A stretch of DNA of 64,000 nucleotides from a phage: sequence record PZ386970.1, one strand, 5' to 3'. A model generated the notes under the pieces. That model saw only the letters and a list, made by a program, of their open reading frames with translations, searched no databases and was not told the origin of the DNA. Below, piece by piece: positions 1,572 through 42,465 of the stretch (position 1 is its first letter; every line of letters starts with the position of its first letter). Made by a program: the position numbers and the translations under genes.

Positions 1572-3260
1572 TTATGAAACAGTCATCACAGTAAATCGTC
1601 CAACTTTGCTCATTTGAAGATGTTGTCCATAAGCTTGTGGGTCATGGTCTCTGTGACTAATTATAAACACGTTTGCATCGGTTAGAGAGTTAAGAATTGT
1701 TGAAATAGCTTTAATACCTTCAGAATCAGTCGCTGAATCCATGACTTCGTCCATAATTAATGTATTGATTCTAACACCAGAGACCTTTTCAGCAATATCT
1801 CGCCATGTAAACAACAATGCGATATCGATACGTGCCTTTTCACCTTGACTAAATGAAGCATAACTAAAATCTTCACGGCCACGTGATTTTATAGATTCAT
1901 TGAATTCTTCGTCAATAGAAAACACGTAATCAGCTTCCATGATTTTAAGATAATGGTTAATCTGCTTGTTGAACAGAGGCACATATTTTTTAATGATAGC
2001 ACCTTTAATACCAGAATCTTTTAACATATCTGTGATAATACCACGATGGTATTTTTCAAGAACGATATCTGATTTTGTTTTAATGATTTTATCAAGTTCT
2101 TTTTGAAGCAAAGCTATCTCATCGGCATGGTCGATAAATTCTGCTGAGGCTTGTTCTATTGCAGCTTTAACTTTCTTAGCTTTATCAATAGTGGCAATCA
2201 TTGCTTGTTTCTTGGTACGAATATCAGATGCAAGGTCCTGTTTAGTCTTAACATTAGCTCTATATTCGTCCACTAGGACACTCAGATTATCTCTGTGACA
2301 GGTAAGTTGCTCGAATGAGTGATTACATTCATGAAGCTTATCGGTAATCTTAGAGACAATAGGATCACCCTGGTGCAACTGTGATGCGCAAGTAGGACAT
2401 GTACCGCCATCATGATACATCTTAATAACTTTGTTATATGAGTCAATTTTAGATTTAATCAAGAATGCTTCTTGTCCTATCTTGTTGAATGCCTCAGTAG
2501 GATCTTCATCAAGAACGATATTAAGTAGTCGCTCATTAGCTTCTTCGATTTCTGCTTTTAATGAACGAGCTTCTTTGGCTAGGTCGTCATACATATTCTG
2601 TAGACGCGCTACATTATCACCAGATAATTTCTTTTGACGTTCGATATTATCGTTATAAATCTTAATTTGTTGGATAATACCATCTTTCTTGGCATCAAGA
2701 ACTTGTCCCTGGGAATTAAGTTCTCGAACTTGAGACTTATTGATTTTATCCATTTCAGCGAGTGTGCCAACTTCTAAAAGGTCTTCGACAAGTTTTCTAC
2801 GAGCAGGGGTGCTAAGAGCCATGAAAGGGGTATACCCTGCCGTCCCAAGCACAACGATTTGTTTAAAAGACGCGTATGACATTCCGATGCTACGTTCAAA
2901 TTCTTCTTGGAAGTCACGACTGCTGGCAGATTCATCGAGACGAACACCGTCAACGGAGATTTCGAAAATATTGGGCTTTTGGCCGCGTTTAATGAAGTAT
3001 TTTTTATCATCGAATTCCATCCAAAGCTCAACTAAGAGCTCTTTCTTGTTCGTGCTATTAATGATTTGTCCTTTCTTAACATCACGAAATGGTTTACCGA
3101 AAAGTCCGAAAGTAATGGCTTCTAACATCGTAGATTTACCACCGCCGTTTTTACCGGTGATTAATGTCTTTTGGACTTTATCTAATTGGATATCAATAGG
3201 ATTCCCACCTACCGACATGATGTTTTGATAACGAACACGATTTAATTTAAATGATTTCAT
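1572..3260 (-). CDS. 46: recombination endonuclease ATPase subunit gp46 (Rad50/SbcC-like)
   Basis: 562 aa; Walker A GKNGGGKST near the N-terminus, long central coiled coil, ABC signature SQGEK and Walker B LIMDEVMDS near the C-terminus; adjacent to gp47. Confidence 0.85.
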   Translation of the reverse strand: MKSFKLNRVRYQNIMSVGGNPIDIQLDKVQKTLITGKNGGGKSTMLEAITFGLFGKPFRDVKKGQIINSTNKKELLVELWMEFDDKKYFIKRGQKPNIFEISVDGVRLDESASSRDFQEEFERSIGMSYASFKQIVVLGTAGYTPFMALSTPARRKLVEDLLEVGTLAEMDKINKSQVRELNSQGQVLDAKKDGIIQQIKIYNDNIERQKKLSGDNVARLQNMYDDLAKEARSLKAEIEEANERLLNIVLDEDPTEAFNKIGQEAFLIKSKIDSYNKVIKMYHDGGTCPTCASQLHQGDPIVSKITDKLHECNHSFEQLTCHRDNLSVLVDEYRANVKTKQDLASDIRTKKQAMIATIDKAKKVKAAIEQASAEFIDHADEIALLQKELDKIIKTKSDIVLEKYHRGIITDMLKDSGIKGAIIKKYVPLFNKQINHYLKIMEADYVFSIDEEFNESIKSRGREDFSYASFSQGEKARIDIALLFTWRDIAEKVSGVRINTLIMDEVMDSATDSEGIKAISTILNSLTDANVFIISHRDHDPQAYGQHLQMSKVGRFTVMTVS

Positions 3261-3505
3261 ATGTATTCTCTTCGAATGAAGTCCTCTACATATTTTAACA
3301 TGTCATCCCTATCAGCAAAATATTCATCTAGTTCTGCATACATAACAACACCTGGTGCGTACTCACAGGTAACATACATTGTTCCAAAGAAACGAGGAGT
3401 TGATTCCTCGTAATTCTCAGTCCATTCTACGATACCAAAATAACCGTCGCCAATACTAAATTCATGGCGCTGGTATTCATTAGTCTTCGTAGTCATTATA
3501 AGCAT
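3257..3505 (-). CDS. hypothetical protein (46.1-like position)
   Basis: 82 aa ORF tightly packed between gp46 and gp47; no recognisable motif. Confidence 0.4.
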   Translation of the reverse strand: MLIMTTKTNEYQRHEFSIGDGYFGIVEWTENYEESTPRFFGTMYVTCEYAPGVVMYAELDEYFADRDDMLKYVEDFIRREYI

Positions 3506-3740: not shown

Positions 3741-4756
3741 TGTGTTGCCTCAATATAAAGTTCGTTGGAATATTTGACCAGCGCTTCTCTGTCTTCGTCT
3801 GAGATATCTGGAATCGCATCAATATATTCTTTAATGATATCTTGAAGTGATTTAATCTCGATTTCCTGGTCGTCATCGGATTCAACACTGTTATCAACTT
3901 TAGAAACCATACGAAGAGAGTGAACTACTTTTTCAAGTTCAGATTCAAACTTAGTCAATTCTGAATCAATTTCTGATACTATAACACGTACGGCTAGATT
4001 AGTATAATCAGAATAATTGATTTTGCCTTTAAACGGATAAGTGATTCGTCGATGCCATGTTGTTTCATTAGGAATAAATTCCATACGTTCAACATCAGTG
4101 TCAAATACCCAGAATCCGCGCGGGTCATTCTCATCGCCTGCAGTAAGGGTCCATGGTGTCCCAATATATTTGACGTTAGCAGCTTCAGAGATTGTGTGGA
4201 AGTGGCCAGACCAGACTTGTTTATAGGTCTTTAAGAAATCAGGTTCAAGCCCATGAGACTTCATTCCTTTATAGAAATAAAAGCCATTCAGTTCCCAGTG
4301 TCCAACACAATACGCAGCAGAAGAAGTCTTGATGTGCTCTAAGATTTCACCTGTATTTTCTTCACACATCCATGGAATTAAATCAATCAGACACCCATCG
4401 AAATCAACAGTCGTAGGTTTATCATAAATAACAACATTTTTACGATGAGACAAAAGCTCTTGGGTTGTATTAGGGTATAAAGTTGTCTTATAAAAAAGGT
4501 CGTGGTTACCCAAAATAGTGTGAACGGTTATTCCAGCGTTTTCAGCCATATCAAATAATTCACGAGTAAACTCCATACAACGTTGTGTTGTGTGAGCTCG
4601 TACATCAAATACGTCCCCGTACTGTATCCATGTTGTTATTCCATTTTTAACAGAATAATCCACCATTTGTTTGAATCCGTGTCGTTGGATGTTTTGAATC
4701 CAAACATCATCCTTTTTTACACCTAAGTGCAAATCGCCCACGTTAAGAATTTTCAT
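3737..4756 (-). CDS. 47: recombination endonuclease nuclease subunit gp47 (Mre11/SbcD-like)
   Basis: Calcineurin-like phosphoesterase motifs GDLHLG and GNHD; start moved to MKILNVGD by analogy to T4 gp47. Confidence 0.85.
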   Translation of the reverse strand: MKILNVGDLHLGVKKDDVWIQNIQRHGFKQMVDYSVKNGITTWIQYGDVFDVRAHTTQRCMEFTRELFDMAENAGITVHTILGNHDLFYKTTLYPNTTQELLSHRKNVVIYDKPTTVDFDGCLIDLIPWMCEENTGEILEHIKTSSAAYCVGHWELNGFYFYKGMKSHGLEPDFLKTYKQVWSGHFHTISEAANVKYIGTPWTLTAGDENDPRGFWVFDTDVERMEFIPNETTWHRRITYPFKGKINYSDYTNLAVRVIVSEIDSELTKFESELEKVVHSLRMVSKVDNSVESDDDQEIEIKSLQDIIKEYIDAIPDISDEDREALVKYSNELYIEATQ

Positions 4757-5570
4757 ATTGCACCTTAAATTTACCATAAATTATACTGTGATAACTTAAA
4801 TCAGGAAAACCTTCTGCGACGGCTAAAGGTCTAAACTTCTTAGGACTTATTCTACCACATTTTACCCAAAGAGTATATAGTGCTTCATAATATTCAAATA
4901 ATGGTCCTTTACGAGCTTCAGAAACAGTTTTACGCACTTTGTCCTTTATTGACGGGTCTAAATTTCTAAGGGTTTCACTAATTTTGTTTCGATGGGTTTC
5001 ATTAATAAGATTTCCTTTAACCCAGCCTTCAGGTTCAGTCCCTGGGACAAACATTTTCTTTTCTTTGCCATTATTATACCATTTGCGACCTTTATTGTGA
5101 CTAGAGGCTTTATATTCAGGAGAACGACCTTTTACATTACCTTCTGGTATATAAGGTAGAAAACTTTGTTCTAACGTTTCAGGGTTGTATGAGTGTATAT
5201 GGCCTTTACCATTATGTGAGCCGTACAATGGGTGCTCTTCTTTTGGAAGTGATAATCCGAAAAATCCTTTAGGAGCAGCAATTGCTTTATTCATATACAT
5301 CGGGTTATTGGCAGCATCCACCTTTAGTTGGAGTAAACGTTCAGCTTTTGTCGCTTCTTCTCTTGTGGCGTGTTCACTTACAATACATGAATCAAAAAGA
5401 TGTGGATTCATTTTTAGTTCAGAATTGTAAATTTCCTTATACGCTTTTGATAAAACCGTTCCGTGATATCCAGCTTTATGTTTTGCAATATTTGTGGAAC
5501 CTATATAAAACGGTGGAAGTTTGTCACCATCATAAATCGTAAAATATACTATGTACATGTTATTCTCCAT
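4743..5570 (-). CDS. putative free-standing GIY-YIG homing endonuclease (Seg-like)
   Basis: N-terminal IVYF-x10-YIGS arrangement resembling GIY-YIG, followed by basic repeats resembling NUMOD3-type DNA-binding modules; occupies the slot where T4 has a-gt. Confidence 0.55.
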   Translation of the reverse strand: MENNMYIVYFTIYDGDKLPPFYIGSTNIAKHKAGYHGTVLSKAYKEIYNSELKMNPHLFDSCIVSEHATREEATKAERLLQLKVDAANNPMYMNKAIAAPKGFFGLSLPKEEHPLYGSHNGKGHIHSYNPETLEQSFLPYIPEGNVKGRSPEYKASSHNKGRKWYNNGKEKKMFVPGTEPEGWVKGNLINETHRNKISETLRNLDPSIKDKVRKTVSEARKGPLFEYYEALYTLWVKCGRISPKKFRPLAVAEGFPDLSYHSIIYGKFKVQYENS

Positions 5571-9770: not shown

Positions 9771-10047
9771 TAATTCCTTGATAAGCCCAATAAGGAGGAT
9801 TAACAGAATCCTCACCCGAGTTTTCTTCAGGAAAATAAACCTGGATAACAAATCCAGATGCATCAAAGGTAAAATAAACCGTAGGCAGTTCACCTAACAA
9901 TTCGGCACGAGCGTTGATTTCTTCGAGGTCTTGTTCACGTCCAGCCCAAAAACTAGGATTTAGACTACATTCGTAAAAATAATAGTCATTACCGAACATA
10001 TCAAACCCCTTCCAACTCTCTACCACGTACCGCTCAAAACTAATCAT
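9736..10047 (-). CDS. hypothetical protein
   Basis: 103 aa ORF; no motif. Confidence 0.4.
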   Translation of the reverse strand: MISFERYVVESWKGFDMFGNDYYFYECSLNPSFWAGREQDLEEINARAELLGELPTVYFTFDASGFVIQVYFPEENSGEDSVNPPYWAYQGIISRGTKLELKE

Positions 10048-10049
10048 AA

Positions 10050-10265
10050 TTAAGCCTTTTTATCAAGAACAGAATTCAGTTTGTTAGTAATTTTGTCCAG
10101 ACGCTCATTGAACTCACTAGAAGATAAGCCCTTTTCCGGAGAAATTAAACTAATCACGAAAAATACACCAGTAAAAGGAATAAGAAAAATAGCTCCAACT
10201 GCCATAAACAGAAAGAATGTTACAGTTGTAAGAAAATCAGCTAAACCTTTACGAAATTTATACAT
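10050..10265 (-). CDS. hypothetical small membrane protein
   Basis: 71 aa with one long hydrophobic segment (FFLFMAVGAIFLIPFTGVFFVISLI). Confidence 0.4.
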   Translation of the reverse strand: MYKFRKGLADFLTTVTFFLFMAVGAIFLIPFTGVFFVISLISPEKGLSSSEFNERLDKITNKLNSVLDKKA

Positions 10266-10376
10266 ATTTACCCTTAATTAATTAACCAAGCGTTGATAAG
10301 CAAACCATATTGCGAATAAAATTCTGGACCAAAATGAAAAATCATATCATTTATAGTATCCATAATGTAGTTCAAT

Positions 10377-10847
10377 TTAATCATGTTTCCACACCCCATC
10401 GGTATTTGACCAAAGTCGCTGATTATCTGATCCTCGCCACAGCTTTTTGGTCGGAAGATTTTTCTCATACTTCCCATCAATAATAACATCAACATATTTA
10501 AGCATTTCTAGCTGTTTAATATCTTCAAACTTATATCCTGTCCACAACCAAATGCTTTTATTAGGATAAAGATTTTTTACTGTTTGAACAATGCAATGAA
10601 TAACATCTCGGTTATCAGGATAGAGAGGGTCACCTCCGGTTATAGTCAATCCTTCTATATAATCATTATTCAAACATTCAATTAATTGTTCTAGTGTTTC
10701 ACCAGTGAATGGAATACCATTTCTAGCATTCCATGTTGATTTATTATAACACCCTTCGCATTTATGCAAACACCCTGTAACGAAAAGAACGACCCTACAA
10801 CCAGGGCCATTCACAAAATCGCAAGGATAAAACCTATCATAATTCAT
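10377..10847 (-). CDS. nrdG: anaerobic ribonucleotide reductase activating protein NrdG
   Basis: 156 aa radical-SAM activase with CLHKCEGC (Cx3Cx2C) cluster motif; directly downstream of nrdD. Confidence 0.9.
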   Translation of the reverse strand: MNYDRFYPCDFVNGPGCRVVLFVTGCLHKCEGCYNKSTWNARNGIPFTGETLEQLIECLNNDYIEGLTITGGDPLYPDNRDVIHCIVQTVKNLYPNKSIWLWTGYKFEDIKQLEMLKYVDVIIDGKYEKNLPTKKLWRGSDNQRLWSNTDGVWKHD

Positions 10848-12120
10848 TGGTGTTTAACCCTATGCATGATTTCTTTATTTTTACCGAGATTAAATCCGCG
10901 TTCGTTCGGATTTCCCAAATAGCCGCATGTTCTTCTTATGGTGTTCATCTTTTTAGGATCAGTTTCTCCACAAACTGAACAAACAAATCCGTTTTCAGTA
11001 GGAGTCATTTCATGAGTACTTCCGCATGTAAAACATTTATCCACTGGCATATTAACACCAAAATAATCTAAATGTTGTGCAGCATAATCCCAGACAGCCT
11101 CAAGACCCTTTAAATTGTTTTTCATATCTGGAAGTTCAACATAAGAAATGTGACCACCTGTCGCAATGAAATGATATGGCGCTTCACGAGAAATCTTTTC
11201 AAATGGAGTAATATTTTCTTCTACTGAAACATGGAAACTGTTAGTGTACCAGCCTTTATCGGTAACATCTTTTACACTTCCATATTTTTCTGTGTCTAGT
11301 TTACAGAAACGATAACAAAGGTTTTCAGCAGGAGTAGAATACAAACTAAAAGCAAATCCAGTTCTTTCAGTCCACTGTTTAAGATGAGCATTCATTTTAG
11401 TTAAAATTTCTTGCCCAATATCACGACCAACAAGAATATTCAATTCATGAATACCAATGTATCCTAAAGACACTGAACTTCTACCATTTTTAAATAACTC
11501 AATTATGTCATCATCAGGTTTAAGACGAACCCCGAATGCACCTTCTTGGTAAAGAATAGGAGCAACAGTCGCTTTAACTCCTTTTAAGGAACTAATTCTA
11601 CACATCAAAGCTTCAAAACATAAATCCATTCGTTCATTGAATAATTCAACAAATTTCTGTTCATTGAACTGTGTTCCAATATAAGAATCTAATGCGATAC
11701 GAGGAAGATTCAGTGTTACAACACCGAGATTATTACGTCCATCAAGAATTTCATTACCAGTCGAATCTTTCCATACACTCAAGAAACTACGGCAGCCCAT
11801 TGGAGAAACAGGAACAGATGAACCGGTAATAGCTTTATTATTCTTAACAGAAATAATGTCAGGATACATTCTTTTGCTTGCACATTCTAACGCAAGTTGT
11901 TTAATATCATAGTTCGGATCATCTTTATAAAGATTAACACCCTCTTCAACAAACATAACAAGTTTAGGAAAAATAGGAGTTATCCCATCACGACCAAGAC
12001 CTTTAATACGATTTTTCAGAATTGCTTTCTGAATCATTCGTTCAGTCCAGTCAGTTCCCGTACCAAATGTAATTGTTACAAAAGGCGTTTGTCCATTAGA
12101 GCTGAAAAGTGTATTTACTT
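10844..12120 (-). CDS. nrdD: anaerobic ribonucleotide reductase NrdD, exon 2 (5' boundary approximate)
   Basis: Glycyl radical motif RTCGYLG and C-terminal zinc ribbon CFTCGS...CSVCGE; reading frame continues from exon 1 across a roughly 1 kb intron; splice acceptor not mapped. Confidence 0.8.
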
Positions 12121-28937: not shown

Positions 28938-29115
28938 TTAGTTTCTCTTAAGGTTGGGGCCATTCCATGGCGCATGAATTGTCCATTTCTGTATTTACCC
29001 ATTACCGCACTTGGGCTCGACCTTATTACAGGTTGGTGGGAATCCCTCATAGAATCATGAGGTCCAGGTTGTTCCCATTTTATTTAAATGTAAATAGGCC
29101 TAAGTATCGGCCTTA

Positions 29116-29694
29116 TTAATTACCACGGGCTGCATTAGCAACGGCGTAAGCGTACTGAACATTAGCGTCTTTAAATGTACCTTTAGAGGTATCTATTTCC
29201 GCCTTAAAGCCGCCTTTAGCCATTACATCGGCAAATTCTTTACGGAAAGCCATTGCGTCAAGACCTTTCCATGATGATTTATGCTTGGCAAATTCAAGAC
29301 CAGCGTAGTTGACAGCCTTAGCTAATTTATTATCAATAACCCATTTACCTGCTTTAGGCACAAACTTCGGACCTTTTTGTTTAGAGAACAGTTTTAAATT
29401 CCAACGACGAAGGTCACTGTCGGCTTTAACAAAAGCTGCATCTAAGTTACTAGCAACAACATCTTCAATATGAGCAAATTTAAGTCCGTCAACTTCAATA
29501 TTTAGATCGTTACGCCAGCGTAGTCCTTCCCAAGCGAAGGCTTTAAAATCAGAAGCTTTTGTGGCTAGATATCGTTCAAGTGGAGCAGTTTTAGGGTCAA
29601 AGCCGTTTCCGCCACGATAATTCCACTCGTCCTTATTAATGCCTTGGACTTTTCCTGCAAAGGCCTCGGCGATAAATTCTTTATACGTTTTCAT
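29116..29694 (-). CDS. internal protein (IPIII-like) with capsid-targeting N-terminus
   Basis: 192 aa starting MKTYKEFIAE, the T4 internal-protein capsid-targeting/protease-cleavage sequence. Confidence 0.6.
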   Translation of the reverse strand: MKTYKEFIAEAFAGKVQGINKDEWNYRGGNGFDPKTAPLERYLATKASDFKAFAWEGLRWRNDLNIEVDGLKFAHIEDVVASNLDAAFVKADSDLRRWNLKLFSKQKGPKFVPKAGKWVIDNKLAKAVNYAGLEFAKHKSSWKGLDAMAFRKEFADVMAKGGFKAEIDTSKGTFKDANVQYAYAVANAARGN

Positions 29695-29720
29695 TTTTGT
29701 TCCTATTGATTTAATTTATG

Positions 29721-30035
29721 TTATTCTTTAGGGAAGTTTTTAGAGTATGCATCATAAAGTTTATTACCAATACGGCGGAAGACTTTAGCTGCAAAACGGT
29801 TTTCAGGGTTTTTAATCATGATTTGCATCATGTAAGTTCCTGCATCCGAAAGAGCTTCTTCATAGTACCCATTAATTTCTTTAAGAGTCCTACGTTTACC
29901 GCCAGGACCGTCAACAGTAATTTTCCATTTACCTGTAGAAGTGCGGCTCGGTGGCTCAACTTGTTCAATCCAAATATAACCACCTTCAACGCGTTGGTTG
30001 GCGGATTCTGCAATAAATTCTTTATACGTTTTCAT
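29721..30035 (-). CDS. internal protein-like (capsid-targeting N-terminus)
   Basis: 104 aa starting MKTYKEFIAE. Confidence 0.55.
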   Translation of the reverse strand: MKTYKEFIAESANQRVEGGYIWIEQVEPPSRTSTGKWKITVDGPGGKRRTLKEINGYYEEALSDAGTYMMQIMIKNPENRFAAKVFRRIGNKLYDAYSKNFPKE

Positions 30036-30065
30036 TTTTGTTTCCTTGTTTGTTTTGATAGAGTA

Positions 30066-30095
30066 ATTATACCATATTAATACTTAAGCGTAAAC
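30066..30095 (-). promoter_or_regulatory. T4-type early promoter
   Basis: Minus strand GTTTAC-18 nt-TATAAT. Confidence 0.45.
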
Positions 30096-30098
30096 AAT

Positions 30099-30359
30099 TT
30101 AAGCTTTACCGCCAGAAATAATTCCGAAGTTGTTAAAATCGTATCCAATATCGTCAACATCTACTTTAGGACTTACTACAACATAAGCAATTTCACTACG
30201 TTTTGCATAGGTGTTGATTTCTTTACCATCGCCACCCAAGAAAGAATACCCATTACGTTTTAATGAGCCAAAGTCTTCCGCATCACCAATGAAAGCTTTA
30301 ACTTTAAATTTATGACCTTTGGCATCTGCTTCAGTGATAAATTCTTGATACATTTTCAT
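30099..30359 (-). CDS. internal protein-like (IPII-like, capsid-targeting N-terminus)
   Basis: 86 aa starting MKMYQEFITE. Confidence 0.55.
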   Translation of the reverse strand: MKMYQEFITEADAKGHKFKVKAFIGDAEDFGSLKRNGYSFLGGDGKEINTYAKRSEIAYVVVSPKVDVDDIGYDFNNFGIISGGKA

Positions 30360-30365
30360 TTTTCC

Positions 30366-30779
30366 TTAGTAAATTGATTTACCATAGTATTTGTACCAAG
30401 TCGGACGTTGAGCAATTTTTTCATCTAAGCGTGCTTGACTTATCGCAATGGACGCTTCGGACGGGACATAATTATTACGAAATTCGGCAGGGATGTCGGA
30501 AATATCCTGGACAGTCGTGTCCTTGATTTTGAAACCACGTTTCAAGCATTCGGCGATTAGCTCGATTTGTCGTAAACGTAAAAATTCGAGTTTGTCGTAA
30601 AAGAATGTTACGTGACCTGTGCCTAAGATAAATGTTGGAGAGATTTTAAAATCCTTTACACGTTTACCGTTTTGAACATGTTTACGGACTGCACCAAATA
30701 CGCGTGGTAATTCACGATACTCGGCCATAAGATGTTGGTCGGTCAGTTCAGAAACAAGTGTTAAATTGATACGAGTCAT
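30366..30779 (-). CDS. denV: endonuclease V (pyrimidine-dimer DNA glycosylase, DenV)
   Basis: [34 protein letters not shown]... matches T4 endonuclease V along its length as recalled; start moved to MTRINL. Confidence 0.85.
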
Positions 30780-30806
30780 AATTTCCTCCAAGTAGTTGAT
30801 GAATGT

Positions 30807-30836
30807 ATAGTATCAAAACCCTTGGAGGAAGTAAAC
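30807..30836 (-). promoter_or_regulatory. T4-type early promoter
   Basis: Minus strand GTTTAC-18 nt-TACTAT upstream of denV. Confidence 0.45.
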
Positions 30837-30837
30837 A

Positions 30838-31119
30838 CTATTTTTCTGAAGCGCCTGAAATATATTTTTCAAGACGTTGTTTCATCAGCGAGCCGTTCTT
30901 AGCGATTTCTTCCGGTTTATCGCACATACGCAACAGTGCTTCAAGCTTAACGATATCACTGGTGCGCTCAAATTTGCGAGTATCTATCTTACTAGCAAGT
31001 TCAGAAATACGTGCTAATAGACTTTCGGCTTCGACCAAAGCTGCACCTAGCTTAGTTGCAAATGTGTCAGTAGCTTCGTTAAGAATAGATTCTGATAAAA
31101 ATTCACTATATGTTTTCAT
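30838..31119 (-). CDS. internal protein-like (capsid-targeting N-terminus)
   Basis: Start moved to [10 protein letters not shown]; helical 93 aa protein. Confidence 0.5.
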
Positions 31120-31604
31120 ATATACGCTTTCCAAGTTCCTGTTTTAAATGTTGAGATTACGCGTTTCGCGCGATTGGGTGTCTGACGATACCATTTAGAT
31201 TGGGCTAGATTTACTGCCGCCTCGTCCCAACGTTTCTGTTGAAGCATACGAAGAGAATTAGTAAAACCGGCGACGCCTGCTACACCCATTTGGAAGACCA
31301 TATTGACCAGTGCACATCGACGAACCGCATCTAAAGAATCATACACCGGTTTAAGTTTAGCATTACCCAAGATTCCGCGAACGGCTTTATCAACGTCTTC
31401 ATTAAATAGCTTTTCAGCCTCATCAAGGGTAATTGTACCATTGCATTTACGACCGATCATTCTGTCAAGTTCAGCTTTAGCTACGGCTAAAGACGGGTTC
31501 TTTGTTACTAAATGGCCTATGCCAATCGTCCAAAAGCCTTCAGTGTCTTTGTATAAAGTCAGTCTAAGACCTTCGTCATTACGAAGCATTTCAAATATAT
31601 TCAT
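31116..31604 (-). CDS. e: endolysin (T4 lysozyme, gene e)
   Basis: [32 protein letters not shown]... matches T4 lysozyme as recalled, including the catalytic Glu and Asp. Confidence 0.9.
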
Positions 31605-31638: not shown

Positions 31639-32097
31639 TTATAGGAGGGTAGTGAGCACCTTATATAATGATTTGCCCATTACATATTCCCATTGAGAAG
31701 GTTTAATTAAAGCGAATGCATCAAATTCAGGAATCTGTCGTCCGTCTGGGAATGTATGATAGGAATTACAAACACTGTTTCTGAATTGCTCGTGCTCTAC
31801 AGGGATGGTATATAGGAACAGATGAATATTCTTATTGTCTGAGTAATGATGTTCACCTAGGTCTTTCAGGAAGGCAGGGTCATATTGTGTAAACCCAGTT
31901 TCTTCTTCGCATTCGCGAATGGCGGCTTCAATAGGAGATTCGCCAGGTTCGACACGGCCTTTAGGAATATCCCACCGATGAGCTAAAGAACCTTTAGGAC
32001 GAGAACCAGTTACACGCCCCATGAATAATTCTTTATCTTCGGTAAGGAAAATAATACCGGCTGATAGTTCTTTTACTTTATTTTTCTTACTCATCAT
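31639..32097 (-). CDS. nudE: Nudix hydrolase NudE
   Basis: Nudix box GRVEPGESPIEAAIRECEEETGF; located next to e as in T4. Confidence 0.8.
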   Translation of the reverse strand: MMSKKNKVKELSAGIIFLTEDKELFMGRVTGSRPKGSLAHRWDIPKGRVEPGESPIEAAIRECEEETGFTQYDPAFLKDLGEHHYSDNKNIHLFLYTIPVEHEQFRNSVCNSYHTFPDGRQIPEFDAFALIKPSQWEYVMGKSLYKVLTTLL

Positions 32098-33001: not shown

Positions 33002-33031
33002 ACTATAACATAGTCCTATAATTGTGTAAAC
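33002..33031 (-). promoter_or_regulatory. T4-type early promoter inside palindrome
   Basis: Minus strand GTTTAC-18 nt-TATAGT; palindrome GGACTACTATAACATAGTCC. Confidence 0.45.
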
Positions 33032-34293: not shown

Positions 34294-34323
34294 ACTATAA
34301 CATAGCCCTATCTTGTTGTAAAC
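34294..34323 (-). promoter_or_regulatory. T4-type early promoter inside palindrome
   Basis: Minus strand GTTTAC-18 nt-TATAGT. Confidence 0.45.
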
Positions 34324-38363: not shown

Positions 38364-38990
38364 TTACTTACGAGTTTTTGCATACTGAGCAGCGTCAGCA
38401 GCCAAACGACCTGCTTGTCGAAGTTTTTCTTTAATCTCATCATGAAGTGGTTGAGTATACTTCAAACCTTCGATAGTCAAATAAAGACGATAAAGGTCTG
38501 GGGTATCAAGGTTGTTGATATGTTGACCATTACGAAGAATATTGAATTCACGAACGAGTGAAGATGTATCAGATTCAATATCACGAACAAGCGAAGATAG
38601 TTGTTTATATTTTTTTTCCAGGCTAGAAGTATCAAACTTAAGAGCAGGAGCTTTAGGAGTTGCTTTTACTTCCGGCTTAGGCTCAGGTTTTGCTACTGCT
38701 TTAGGGGTCGCAGGTTTAGGAATGGTAGGAGCAGGTTTTACTTTAGGCGAACCAGACTTAGCAGAAACACCACCACTAACAATATCTTTGAATGCTTTAG
38801 AAGCTCTATAATATTCTTTTTGGCTTGAAGTGTCGATACCGTACATGGCTTGAACGTTTTTGAAAAACTCTGTACTAGTTTTTGTACCAGAAATAGCATC
38901 GTAAGCAGCTTGCCATTTCTCTTTTGTCATACGTACACCGGCTTCGGTGATTACTTCCGTTTCGGCTAAAAATTCATTAAAAGTATACAT
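38364..38990 (-). CDS. internal protein-like with proline/lysine-rich repeat region
   Basis: 208 aa starting MYTFNEFLAE (capsid-targeting-like), with central KP/AP-rich low-complexity tract. Confidence 0.5.
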   Translation of the reverse strand: MYTFNEFLAETEVITEAGVRMTKEKWQAAYDAISGTKTSTEFFKNVQAMYGIDTSSQKEYYRASKAFKDIVSGGVSAKSGSPKVKPAPTIPKPATPKAVAKPEPKPEVKATPKAPALKFDTSSLEKKYKQLSSLVRDIESDTSSLVREFNILRNGQHINNLDTPDLYRLYLTIEGLKYTQPLHDEIKEKLRQAGRLAADAAQYAKTRK

Positions 38991-39033
38991 TGATGGTCCT
39001 TAGAAGGTAGGTTTATTGTTTACTATATTTATA

Positions 39034-39063
39034 CAAAAAAGCCCCAACCTTTCGGAAGGGGCT
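39034..39063 (-). terminator. rho-independent terminator
   Basis: Minus strand AGCCCC-UUCCGAAAGGUU-GGGGCU followed by UUUUUU; closes the tRNA region. Confidence 0.55.
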
Positions 39064-39111
39064 ATGCCTTGCGGCAACCTTGTCGGGGTTCCACCTGCTA
39101 AGGCAAGTGTT

Positions 39112-39206
39112 TGTACGAAACGCCGGGATTTGAACCCGGTTATTAAGTAGTTGACGCTACTCAATATTTTTAAAAGGCCATATCTCGACCATATCCGAAC
39201 GTTCCG
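39112..39206 (-). ncRNA. tRNA-like RNA (unresolved; possible class II tRNA or small stable RNA)
   Basis: Canonical T-arm CCGGG-UUCAAAU-CCCGG on the minus strand and a possible 7-bp acceptor pairing about 92 nt apart; I could not fold a canonical D-arm or anticodon arm by eye. Confidence 0.3.
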
Positions 39207-39374
39207 TCAAAAACGCTACTCGGCTTACGGCAAAGATATTTCCTCGAATCGATAATTCTGTGCGCCGTTTCTGCTGTGATGTAAGGGGATATTAACAAAT
39301 CATAAAGATTTATTAAGACCAGTCCTTACTCAGGGAACATCAGTCCGACGACTTGCCGGTAGCGACCCGGCTTC

Positions 39375-39722
39375 TTATTTTGGCATATCATCAATTTGTT
39401 CTCGACGCCTACGCCATAGATTAATCGCTTCATTGACACATTCTGCGTTTGGTATATGACGGCAATAATATAATGATTCGCGTTTCTGGAACCGATGTTG
39501 CAACGGGATTTCGTTTAAAAGGTCTTTACGGTCAAAGTATTCAAAACTAGTTAACCCGGAACGGTTTTTAAGAAACTTCCAATGTCCGAATTCATTTTGA
39601 AAATAAACATAATCAGCATGCTGATACAGCGAATTAATTAACCTATCGGAAATAACTGTTTCACGTTCGTTAAAATAAAACGTTAAATCATGAACTACCA
39701 GATAAACATTGCCTTTCATATT
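39375..39722 (-). CDS. hypothetical protein within tRNA region
   Basis: Start moved to MKGNVYLVVHDL..., preceded by a GAGGA ribosome-binding site; the longer ORF-track start would overlap the tRNA-Arg gene. Confidence 0.4.
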   Translation of the reverse strand, partial: NMKGNVYLVVHDLTFYFNERETVISDRLINSLYQHADYVYFQNEFGHWKFLKNRSGLTSFEYFDRKDLLNEIPLQHRFQKRESLYYCRHIPNAECVNEAINLWRRRREQIDDMPK

Positions 39723-41329: not shown

Positions 41330-41357
41330 TTTATTCTCCTCAGTAGTTGATAGGGTA

Positions 41358-41387
41358 ATAGTATCACTACCCTATCTAAAAGTAAAC
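41358..41387 (-). promoter_or_regulatory. T4-type early promoter inside palindrome GATAGGGTA...TACCCTATC
   Basis: Minus strand GTTTAC-18 nt-TACTAT. Confidence 0.45.
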
Positions 41388-41398
41388 GGTTTTATAAA

Positions 41399-41707
41399 CT
41401 ATTTTATTCCGCGTGATGCAATCGTATTCTGCCGTTTAACGCCAGTTTGTTTAAAGTTATGATTGTCGAGTTGATCGGTACGAGCAACTCCGAATGATGA
41501 TTTAATCTTAGCTTTAGATCCTTTAGTTATAGAAATAAACATCTCGGGAGCCCCTTTCTTAAAGTCCGAAGCAATTACTTCAACACCGTTCTTAGCAAGT
41601 GACCTCAGAATTGCTTCCGCATACTCATCATCAAGACCCGCTTGAGTATGAATAACGAATGTCTTTGGTGCAGCTGCTTCACAGATAAATTCTTTAAATG
41701 TTTTCAT
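41399..41707 (-). CDS. internal protein I-like (capsid-targeting N-terminus)
   Basis: 102 aa starting MKTFKEFICEA; located directly upstream of 57B, the ipI position in T4. Confidence 0.55.
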   Translation of the reverse strand: MKTFKEFICEAAAPKTFVIHTQAGLDDEYAEAILRSLAKNGVEVIASDFKKGAPEMFISITKGSKAKIKSSFGVARTDQLDNHNFKQTGVKRQNTIASRGIK

Positions 41708-41737: not shown

Positions 41738-41767
41738 ACTATAACATAGTCCTATCAGCATGTAAAC
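41738..41767 (-). promoter_or_regulatory. T4-type early promoter inside palindrome GATAGGACTA...TAGTCCTATC
   Basis: Minus strand GTTTAC-18 nt-TATAGT, upstream of the ipI-like gene. Confidence 0.5.
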
Positions 41768-41779
41768 TGTTTTGTGAAA

Positions 41780-42465
<686 letters not shown>

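Follow-up and report, generated by a model that had tools for sequence, protein, structure and literature searches.

The stretch of phage DNA analysed here (sequence record PZ386970.1; 64,000 nucleotides, hereafter the window) carries six genes on its minus strand whose products begin with the N-terminal tag of the internal proteins (IPs) of phage T4. Judged by its sequence, the phage is a Mosigvirus of the RB69 group of T-even phages, as are Escherichia phage ChristianSchoenbein (Bas46) and p000v, to which the 2.8 kb around the denV–e cluster are 97.5 and 96.9% identical, respectively. The gene order on the minus strand is that of T4 (regB/vs, denV, e, nudE ... tRNAs, 57B, 57A, gene 1). The original prediction, made from the letters alone, had placed four tagged open reading frames (ORFs) around denV and e, between positions 29116 and 31119, and two more at 38364–38990 and 41399–41707; all six were found at these positions, on the minus strand and with the N-termini it had given (Table 1).

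A six-frame scan of the window with the core pattern [YFW]xEF[ILVM]xE returned exactly six matches, all on the minus strand. Each match starts at residue 4 of an ORF, with a Met three residues upstream and the preceding stop codon 6–20 codons away, and a relaxed form of the motif gave no additional match in the window. In 200 shuffles, the mean chance expectation was 0.1 core matches, or 0.005 when the Met was required, while shuffling the amino acids within the long ORFs yielded 0.115. Six matches against 0.1 expected, all of them at ORF starts, indicate that the tag signal is real. The similarity extends to the DNA, in which the six genes agree at 19–27 of their first 30 positions; the ribosome-binding regions are also alike, and a plausible ribosome-binding site is present for every gene. 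Beyond the tag, the six bodies exhibited no BLAST similarity to one another, as had been predicted, nor to T4 IPI or IPII, and none of the six had an above-threshold match in searches of Pfam, NCBIfam and PDB sequences.

In T4 IPIII, ten residues suffice to load a protein into the prohead, with residues 4 and 7 directing targeting and residues 8 and 10 directing processing by the protease gp21; the propeptide of T4 IPI is longer, at 19 residues (PMC9026906). All six window proteins possess Tyr or Phe at position 4 and Phe at position 7, after the initiator Met, together with Ile or Leu at position 8 and Glu at position 10, followed by Ala, Ser or Thr. The cleavage motifs, with the expected cut marked by a slash, are IAE/A in the IPIII-type protein, IAE/S in the Ip10-type protein, ITE/A in the product of 30099–30359, LSE/S in the Ip5-like protein, LAE/T in the product of 38364–38990 and ICE/A in the Ip7-type protein. 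A second site of the form [ILV]-x-E-Ala was detected at residue 15 of the Ip5-like protein (LNE/A) and at residue 16 of the product of 38364–38990 (ITE/A), which recalls the 19-residue propeptide of T4 IPI. The earlier reading of the tag as a capsid-targeting and prohead-protease cleavage sequence is thus in agreement with the residue map of T4 IPIII, and five of the six proteins belong to families named internal proteins.

Table 1. Tag-bearing genes and associated features of the window
Feature	Position	Strand	Identity, basis or context
Tag ORF, 192 aa, MKTYKEFIAE	29116–29694	−	IPIII
Tag ORF, 104 aa, MKTYKEFIAE	29721–30035	−	Ip10 family
Tag ORF, 86 aa, MKMYQEFITE	30099–30359	−	RB69p125-type
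Tag ORF, 93 aa	30838–31119	−	Ip5-like
Tag ORF, 208 aa, MYTFNEFLAE	38364–38990	−	PHROG 2280
Tag ORF, 102 aa, MKTFKEFICE	41399–41707	−	Ip7
Terminator-like hairpin just 3′ of IPIII stop	29096–29113	−	Terminator scan; inside the non-homologous IPIII/ORF123c interval 29037–29668
Early-type promoter GTTTAC-N18-TATAAT of the Ip10–IPIII unit	30066–30095	−	Consensus scan, 10/12; upstream TG
denV (endonuclease V), context gene	30366–30779	−	Annotation in relatives
Early-type promoter of denV	30807–30836	−	Promoter search
e (endolysin), context gene	31116–31604	−	Annotation in relatives
T4-type late promoter TATAAATA of 38364–38990	39026–39033	−	43 nt upstream of the gene
Terminator-like hairpin directly before the late promoter of 38364–38990	39035–39061	−	~50 nt downstream of rnaC homologue
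rnaC homologue (T4 small stable RNA)	39114–39252	−	98.6% identity
rnaD homologue (T4 small stable RNA)	39260–39378	−	85.8% identity
Early-type promoter GTTTAC-N18-TATAGT of Ip7	41738–41767	−	Promoter scan, 10/12
57B (Acb1-like), context gene marking the T4 ipI locus	41780–42235	−	Synteny with T4, Mizar, LF82-1 and T2

The homology comparison of the bodies, suggested with the original prediction, identified five as IPIII, Ip10, RB69p125-type, Ip5-like and Ip7, and placed the sixth in PHROG 2280. The product of 29116–29694 is 91% identical to T4 IPIII over its full length and matches PHROG 5341 ('internal virion protein', E 3e-117); by this similarity it is a plain IPIII orthologue. Its neighbour at 29721–30035 exhibited 72% identity to 'Ip10' of Shigella phage SP18, carries 'IpII internal head protein' as one UniRef name and matches PHROG 3966, a family that also holds ORF123c of RB69. 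The 30099–30359 product is 95% identical to RB69p125 ('internal head protein') and matches PHROG 2667 and PHROG 35655, while that of 30838–31119 is 48% identical both to Ip5 of T2 and to Bas37_0261 and matches PHROG 3499 ('internal head protein', E 1e-46). Finally, the product of 41399–41707 is 91% identical to the annotated ip7 product of T2, is called 'Ip7 protein' in several records and matches PHROG 2667 with an E value of 6e-40. As this last family is shared with the 30099–30359 product, the two were compared profile to profile by hhalign, which gave 79% probability over an aligned part that was mostly tag; the two may be paralogues. Sequence comparison detected no homologue of T4 IPI, T4 IPII, T2 Ip4, RB69 ORF123c or Bas37_0260 in the window; the idea that the McrBC inhibitor (Bas37_0260), T4 IPI, T4 IPII or T2 Ip4 might be among its proteins was rejected accordingly. 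Both the observation of an IP gene set of this kind and its interpretation are already known, and the five classical genes are named internal proteins in related records.

We also analysed the transcription signals of these genes. An early-type promoter of the form GTTTAC-N17/18-TAnnnT precedes Ip10, denV and Ip7 by approximately 60 nt, an arrangement that we also found for T4 ipI, ipII and ipIII, T2 ip5 and ip7, and Bas37_0260 and Bas37_0261. The Ip10 promoter lies at −60 from the ATG, the same spacing as in T4 ipI, T2 ip5 and ip7, and the two Bas37 genes. The remaining classical genes appear to ride on neighbouring transcripts: the 26-nt gap between Ip10 and IPIII is devoid of a promoter, suggesting that IPIII is probably co-transcribed with Ip10; the RB69p125-type gene starts 6 nt past the denV stop codon, and is thus probably co-transcribed with denV; and the ATG of the Ip5-like gene overlaps the stop codon of e (ATGA).

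The Ip7 gene lies a short way downstream of 57B, in the classical ipI locus. Its promoter is overlapped by a perfect 11-bp stem (41728–41738/41747–41757, 100% complementary), and a similar promoter/stem-loop element lies downstream of the gene at 41349–41387, so that this variable ORF is flanked on both sides by an early sigma-70-type promoter with a stem-loop, resembling the promoter early stem-loop (PeSL) cassettes of T-even phages. No strong overlapping stem was detected at the Ip10 and denV promoters. The Ip7 promoter is nearly identical to two other early-type promoters on the minus strand of the window, at 33002–33031 and 34294–34323 (GTTTACA...ATAGG[AG]CTATGTTATAGT); such repeated promoters could act as recombination sites between distant small-gene cassettes. 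The AlphaFold2 (AF2) model of Ip7 has a small beta-alpha-beta-beta-alpha core at a predicted local distance difference test score (pLDDT) of 64; the fold comparison gave only generic ACT/ferredoxin-like matches (E ≥ 0.04) and no match to T4 IPI*, and was rejected as an identification. Residues 74–102 of Ip7 (FGVARTDQ.DNH.FKQTGVKRQNTIASRGIK) are near-invariant across phages of Escherichia, Klebsiella, Enterobacter and Citrobacter. This C-terminal tail is nevertheless predicted to be disordered (pLDDT ~40), and might become ordered only when a partner is bound.

The composition of the IP set differs even between close relatives. Compared with RB69, homology of 97.8% extends from position 31700 to 29669, where it breaks off 26 nt into the IPIII tag, and resumes at 29036; the interval between these breakpoints is occupied in RB69 by ORF123c, which bears a tag, has an unrelated body and belongs to the Ip10 PHROG. 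As the homology ends inside the IPIII tag, the 5′ exchange joint is the tag DNA itself. In addition, blocks of 27–42 nt comprising the Shine-Dalgarno sequence and the tag cross-match between cassettes at 83–94%. In Mizar (4864–5151 of the compared stretch) and LF82-1 (4164–4451), a T4-type ipI with the propeptide MKTYKEFISP...STLTE/A lies between 57B and Ip7. The corresponding gap in the window is only 72 nt and contains no ipI, indicating that an inhibitor of the GmrSD(CT596) type is absent from the window phage. Gene positions vary as well: in Bas37 the interval from denV to e is free of IP genes; T2 and Bas37 carry Ip5 at the ipI locus, but the related window gene adjoins e; and IPIII lies across denV from where T4 has it. 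Taken together, the IP set is likely to turn over by cassette exchange, in which the homology for recombination would be supplied by the 5′ Shine-Dalgarno and tag DNA and by the intergenic early promoter/stem-loop elements.

Since tag DNA is a demonstrated homology boundary, some of the six genes might be decaying or non-functional cassettes, in which the tag persists only as a recombination joint and thus as a mark of ancestry. Decay of this kind was detected in relatives. In the RB69 stretch (1741–2022, 2825–3097 and 3166–3495), the tag of RB69p127 is corrupted (MKTYMNFYQN) and ORF124c is an Ip10 with a changed C-terminus, while ORF123c has Ala, not Glu, at residue 10; likewise, the p000v copy of the 30099–30359 gene (2700–2954 of the compared stretch) has lost its first ATG. 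In the window, by contrast, all residues known to matter are kept in six of six proteins and all six genes have plausible ribosome-binding sites, and orthologues of the tag genes are 92–100% identical in many phages, suggesting purifying selection. We therefore regard decay as highly improbable for the window genes.

The count of six genes against three in T4 was confirmed, as the syntenic 14 kb of T4 contains three tag-bearing genes, but the notion of a peculiar expansion was rejected. The denV–e locus of RB69 alone holds four IP-type ORFs, of which two have a canonical tag, and IPI is a further IP of that phage (PMC6024577); ipI is present in Mizar and LF82-1, and Bas37 has four tag-bearing genes. 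From these comparisons, six IP genes are probably ordinary for Mosigvirus.

The only new point concerns 38364–38990, a probable unannotated internal protein gene, of which an earlier notice in Repoila 1994 or Comeau 2007 is possible. Its product matches PHROG 2280 ('unknown function', E 5e-58), and it and its relatives are 'hypothetical' in 139 of 139 matching phage records, as are all named cluster members in the sample. The N-terminus, MYTFNEFLAE/TEVITE/A, contains the tag and the second site described above. PHROG 2280 is a small family, with 13 representative clusters among 1.84 billion proteins, and occurs in Mosigvirus, Dhakavirus, Winklervirus, some Tequatrovirus and relatives infecting Enterobacter, Klebsiella and Yersinia. 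No member was detected in the syntenic region examined in T4 and T2, which may explain why the family has been overlooked. Bas37 (MZ501089) encodes two copies, bas37_0243 (10029–10592) and bas37_0244 (10718–11191), both tag-bearing and annotated as hypothetical, at the equivalent place just downstream of the tRNA block and with a late promoter upstream of 0244; by hhalign, their membership of PHROG 2280 was supported at 90–94% probability over the full length. Across genera, and down to less than 50% identity, the N-termini of the family keep the tag pattern (for example, MKTYNEFLNES, MLNFNEFITES, MLKFKDILTES and MITFNEFLNES), in most cases followed by a second [ILV]-x-E-[AS] site.

In the AF2 model, the product of 38364–38990 consists of a small helical domain (residues 23–72), a disordered linker rich in Pro, Ala and Lys (74–113) and a confident three-helix C-domain (122–206). 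A match to TonB was discarded, as it covered only the Pro/Lys-rich linker. Two family members (P0040 and P0043) resemble the rest of the family from the tag through the N-terminal helical domain and Pro/Ala/Lys linker but have unrelated C-terminal halves, suggesting domain swapping behind a common N-terminal module.

The gene lies beside the rnaC homologue, at a third locus outside the two hyperplastic IP loci of Repoila et al. 1994 (vs.8–denV–e and 57B–trna.4), into which the other five tag genes fall and which are syntenic with the ipII/ipIII and ipI loci of T4. The late promoter TATAAATA upstream of it recurs in Mizar, LF82-1 and Bas37_0244, at a distance of −43 or −46. Rfam contains no family for rnaC or rnaD, and its scan around this locus found only two tRNAs; given the rnaC and rnaD homologues, the short ORFs called at 39000–39298 are considered spurious. 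Two IP loci are described in PMC12373910 and PMC2839356. We put at about even the chance that PHROG 2280 represents an unrecognised third class of capsid-targeted, injected T-even proteins, expressed from a late promoter beside rnaC and composed of a delivery module and an exchangeable C-terminal cargo domain.

For this gene alone, a different role must be weighed, namely that of a late protein acting as a virion or assembly accessory, whose N-terminus is merely tag-like and which is not injected. Its position beyond the two classical loci, its late promoter in place of the early promoter typical of IP cassettes, a size twice that usual for IPs and the strong conservation of its C-domain, which is unlike a fast-evolving inhibitor, all fit such a role, as does the fact that no database record names it as an IP; moreover, MYTFNEFLAE is the most divergent tag among the six. 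Against these points, nearly all members of PHROG 2280, to below 50% identity, show M-x-x-[FY]-x-[EDQ]-[FI]-[ILV]-x-E together with the second [ILV]-x-E-[AS] site, and tags of canonical form occur within the family (MKTYNEFLNE in Dhakavirus and MKTYAEFLTE in Bas37_0243). Late timing would suit a component of the prohead, and the two members that combine the N-terminal module and linker with another C-domain are as expected of a delivery module with swappable cargo. An accessory role thus appears doubtful, and it is rather likely that 38364–38990 encodes a packaged and processed internal protein; for the five classical genes, packaging and processing of the products are very probable.

Based on these observations, the six genes are likely to be the T-even IP genes of the RB69 group, with products that are capsid-targeted, cut by gp21, injected and active as nuclease inhibitors. 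The tag, the cleavage motif, the family identities, the loci, the promoters and one exchange joint were observed directly, whereas packaging, cleavage and injection are inferred from work on T4, in which the ten-residue tag attaches the protein to the scaffolding core while the prohead assembles. In the window phage, gp21 would then cut after Glu10, and possibly also at the second [ILV]-x-E site of the Ip5-like protein (residue 15) and the product of 38364–38990 (residue 16), and the mature protein, freed inside the head, would leave with the DNA at infection. The mature proteins would most likely serve as ready-made inhibitors, each directed at a single variant of the host nucleases that act against modified phage DNA. 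This anti-restriction role, assigned by analogy, is strongest for the IPIII orthologue, which quite likely blocks an enzyme of the GmrS/GmrSD type, as does T4 Ip3; the other five proteins may, on balance, also act on host defences. The original view of the set as diversifying injected effectors coincides with the published consensus (PMC12373910, PMC2839356, PMC4122927 and 10.1101/2025.11.20.689424).

Besides the location and C-domain conservation of 38364–38990 noted above, several observations weigh against this interpretation. The window does not extend to the genes for the gp21 protease, the gp22 scaffold, gp67 and gp68, although the closest relative, Bas46 (97.5% identity over the locus), encodes all four. 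A literature search, JS98-type phages included, found no virion proteomics or N-terminal data for any Mosigvirus IP. Homology to a protein with a demonstrated target was detected only for IPIII, one of the six, the others being without similarity to T4 IPI, T4 IPII or Bas37_0260, and the predicted folds gave no functional lead. Two of the mature forms are near-neutral, with isoelectric points (pI) of 6.3 and 6.8. Finally, IPIII also affects head morphogenesis in T4, which makes a structural role possible (PMC9026906).

An alternative is that the proteins are packaged but mainly structural or DNA-associated, serving in charge neutralisation, as co-factors of gp22-core assembly or as an aid to DNA exit. 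T4 heads contain approximately 360 copies of each IP, and IPIII-defective T4 forms more polyheads (PMC9026906). Four of the six mature forms in the window are basic (pI 9.6–9.9), the basic tail of Ip7 is conserved and predicted to be disordered, and the C-domain of the 38364–38990 product is, in the AF2 model, a generic long helical bundle. A mainly structural role is nevertheless improbable, as all three T4 IPs have specific anti-restriction targets (PMC12373910) and a fourth IP inhibits McrBC (10.1101/2025.11.20.689424), as IP genes come and go between close relatives with viability kept, and as unrelated bodies fit diverse targets better than one common physical role. The role as injected nuclease inhibitors is therefore preferred.

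Two further structures were observed at the context genes of the cluster. A 19-nt inverted repeat (30774–30792/30821–30839, 79% complementary) pairs the ribosome-binding site and start codon of denV with the −35 element of the denV promoter, and the denV start would accordingly be sequestered in read-through transcripts from e and the Ip5-like gene but free in transcripts from the denV promoter. Upstream of e, a perfect 9-bp stem (31605–31613/31624–31632) sequesters the GGAGG ribosome-binding site and has a TATAAA-type sequence in its loop; we take this stem to resemble the hairpin of T4 that keeps lysozyme untranslated from early transcripts.

The significance of these genes lies in the nature of IPs as counter-defence factors that are already present as the DNA enters the cell. 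Each IP characterised in the 2025 work disarms a specific modification-dependent nuclease. T4 Ip1, Ip2 and Ip3 are inhibitors of one GmrSD variant each and do not cross-protect (PMC12373910), and the tag-bearing Bas37_0260, at the ipI locus, inhibits McrBC (preprint 10.1101/2025.11.20.689424), indicating that the targets of IPs extend beyond GmrSD. The DNA of RB69, the type member of the group to which the window phage belongs, carries arabinosyl-hydroxymethylcytosine and is still cut by GmrSD (PMC6024577); as this is not the glucosyl form, the relevant host nucleases may differ from those of T4. The five orphan tag-bearing proteins of the window provide a list of candidates for matching to GmrSD, McrBC and other defences, and for engineering the host range of therapeutic T-even phages. 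Differences in IPs between T4 and PST are among the candidate host-range determinants listed by Comeau et al. 2014 (PMC4122927).

The diversity of IPs has long been recognised. At least ten IPs were found through the signal sequence by Repoila et al. 1994, according to the account of that work given by Silas et al. 2025 (PMC12373910), and more than 30 variants are cited by Arbiol et al. 2010 (PMC2839356), whose summary of Repoila et al. also mentions promoter/stem-loop elements at both IP loci.

Compared with the T4 IPs, the window proteins are alike in the N-terminal tag, the two loci, small size, dispensability and the position of their early-type promoters, roughly −60 to −83, but the window phage is without an IPI or IPII homologue and has its IPIII across denV. 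Within the Ip4–Ip10 series (Repoila et al. 1994; T2 MH751506, SP18), Ip7 (91%), the Ip5 relative (48%) and the Ip10-family protein (72%) have clear counterparts; the differences are the absence of Ip4 and the place of the Ip5 relative, beside e and not at the ipI locus as in T2 and Bas37. Bas37_0260 shares with the window proteins the tag, small size, the ipI locus and the same early promoter, but belongs to PHROG 8111, with a body dissimilar to any of the six. As in the PeSL and PeSL-like boundaries described previously (PMC2839356, PMC4122927), the Ip7 cassette is bordered by early promoters with overlapping stem-loops, whereas the one joint mapped in the window lies in tag-coding DNA and not in a promoter element. 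The ejection proteins of P22 (gp7, gp16 and gp20) and the E proteins of phiKZ and SPN3US likewise travel inside the head and enter the host along with the DNA, as T4 work suggests for the window proteins, and PMC5694885 describes those of SPN3US as matured by a prohead protease. Their targeting signals and families are regarded as unrelated to those of the window proteins, a distinction drawn without sequence comparison.

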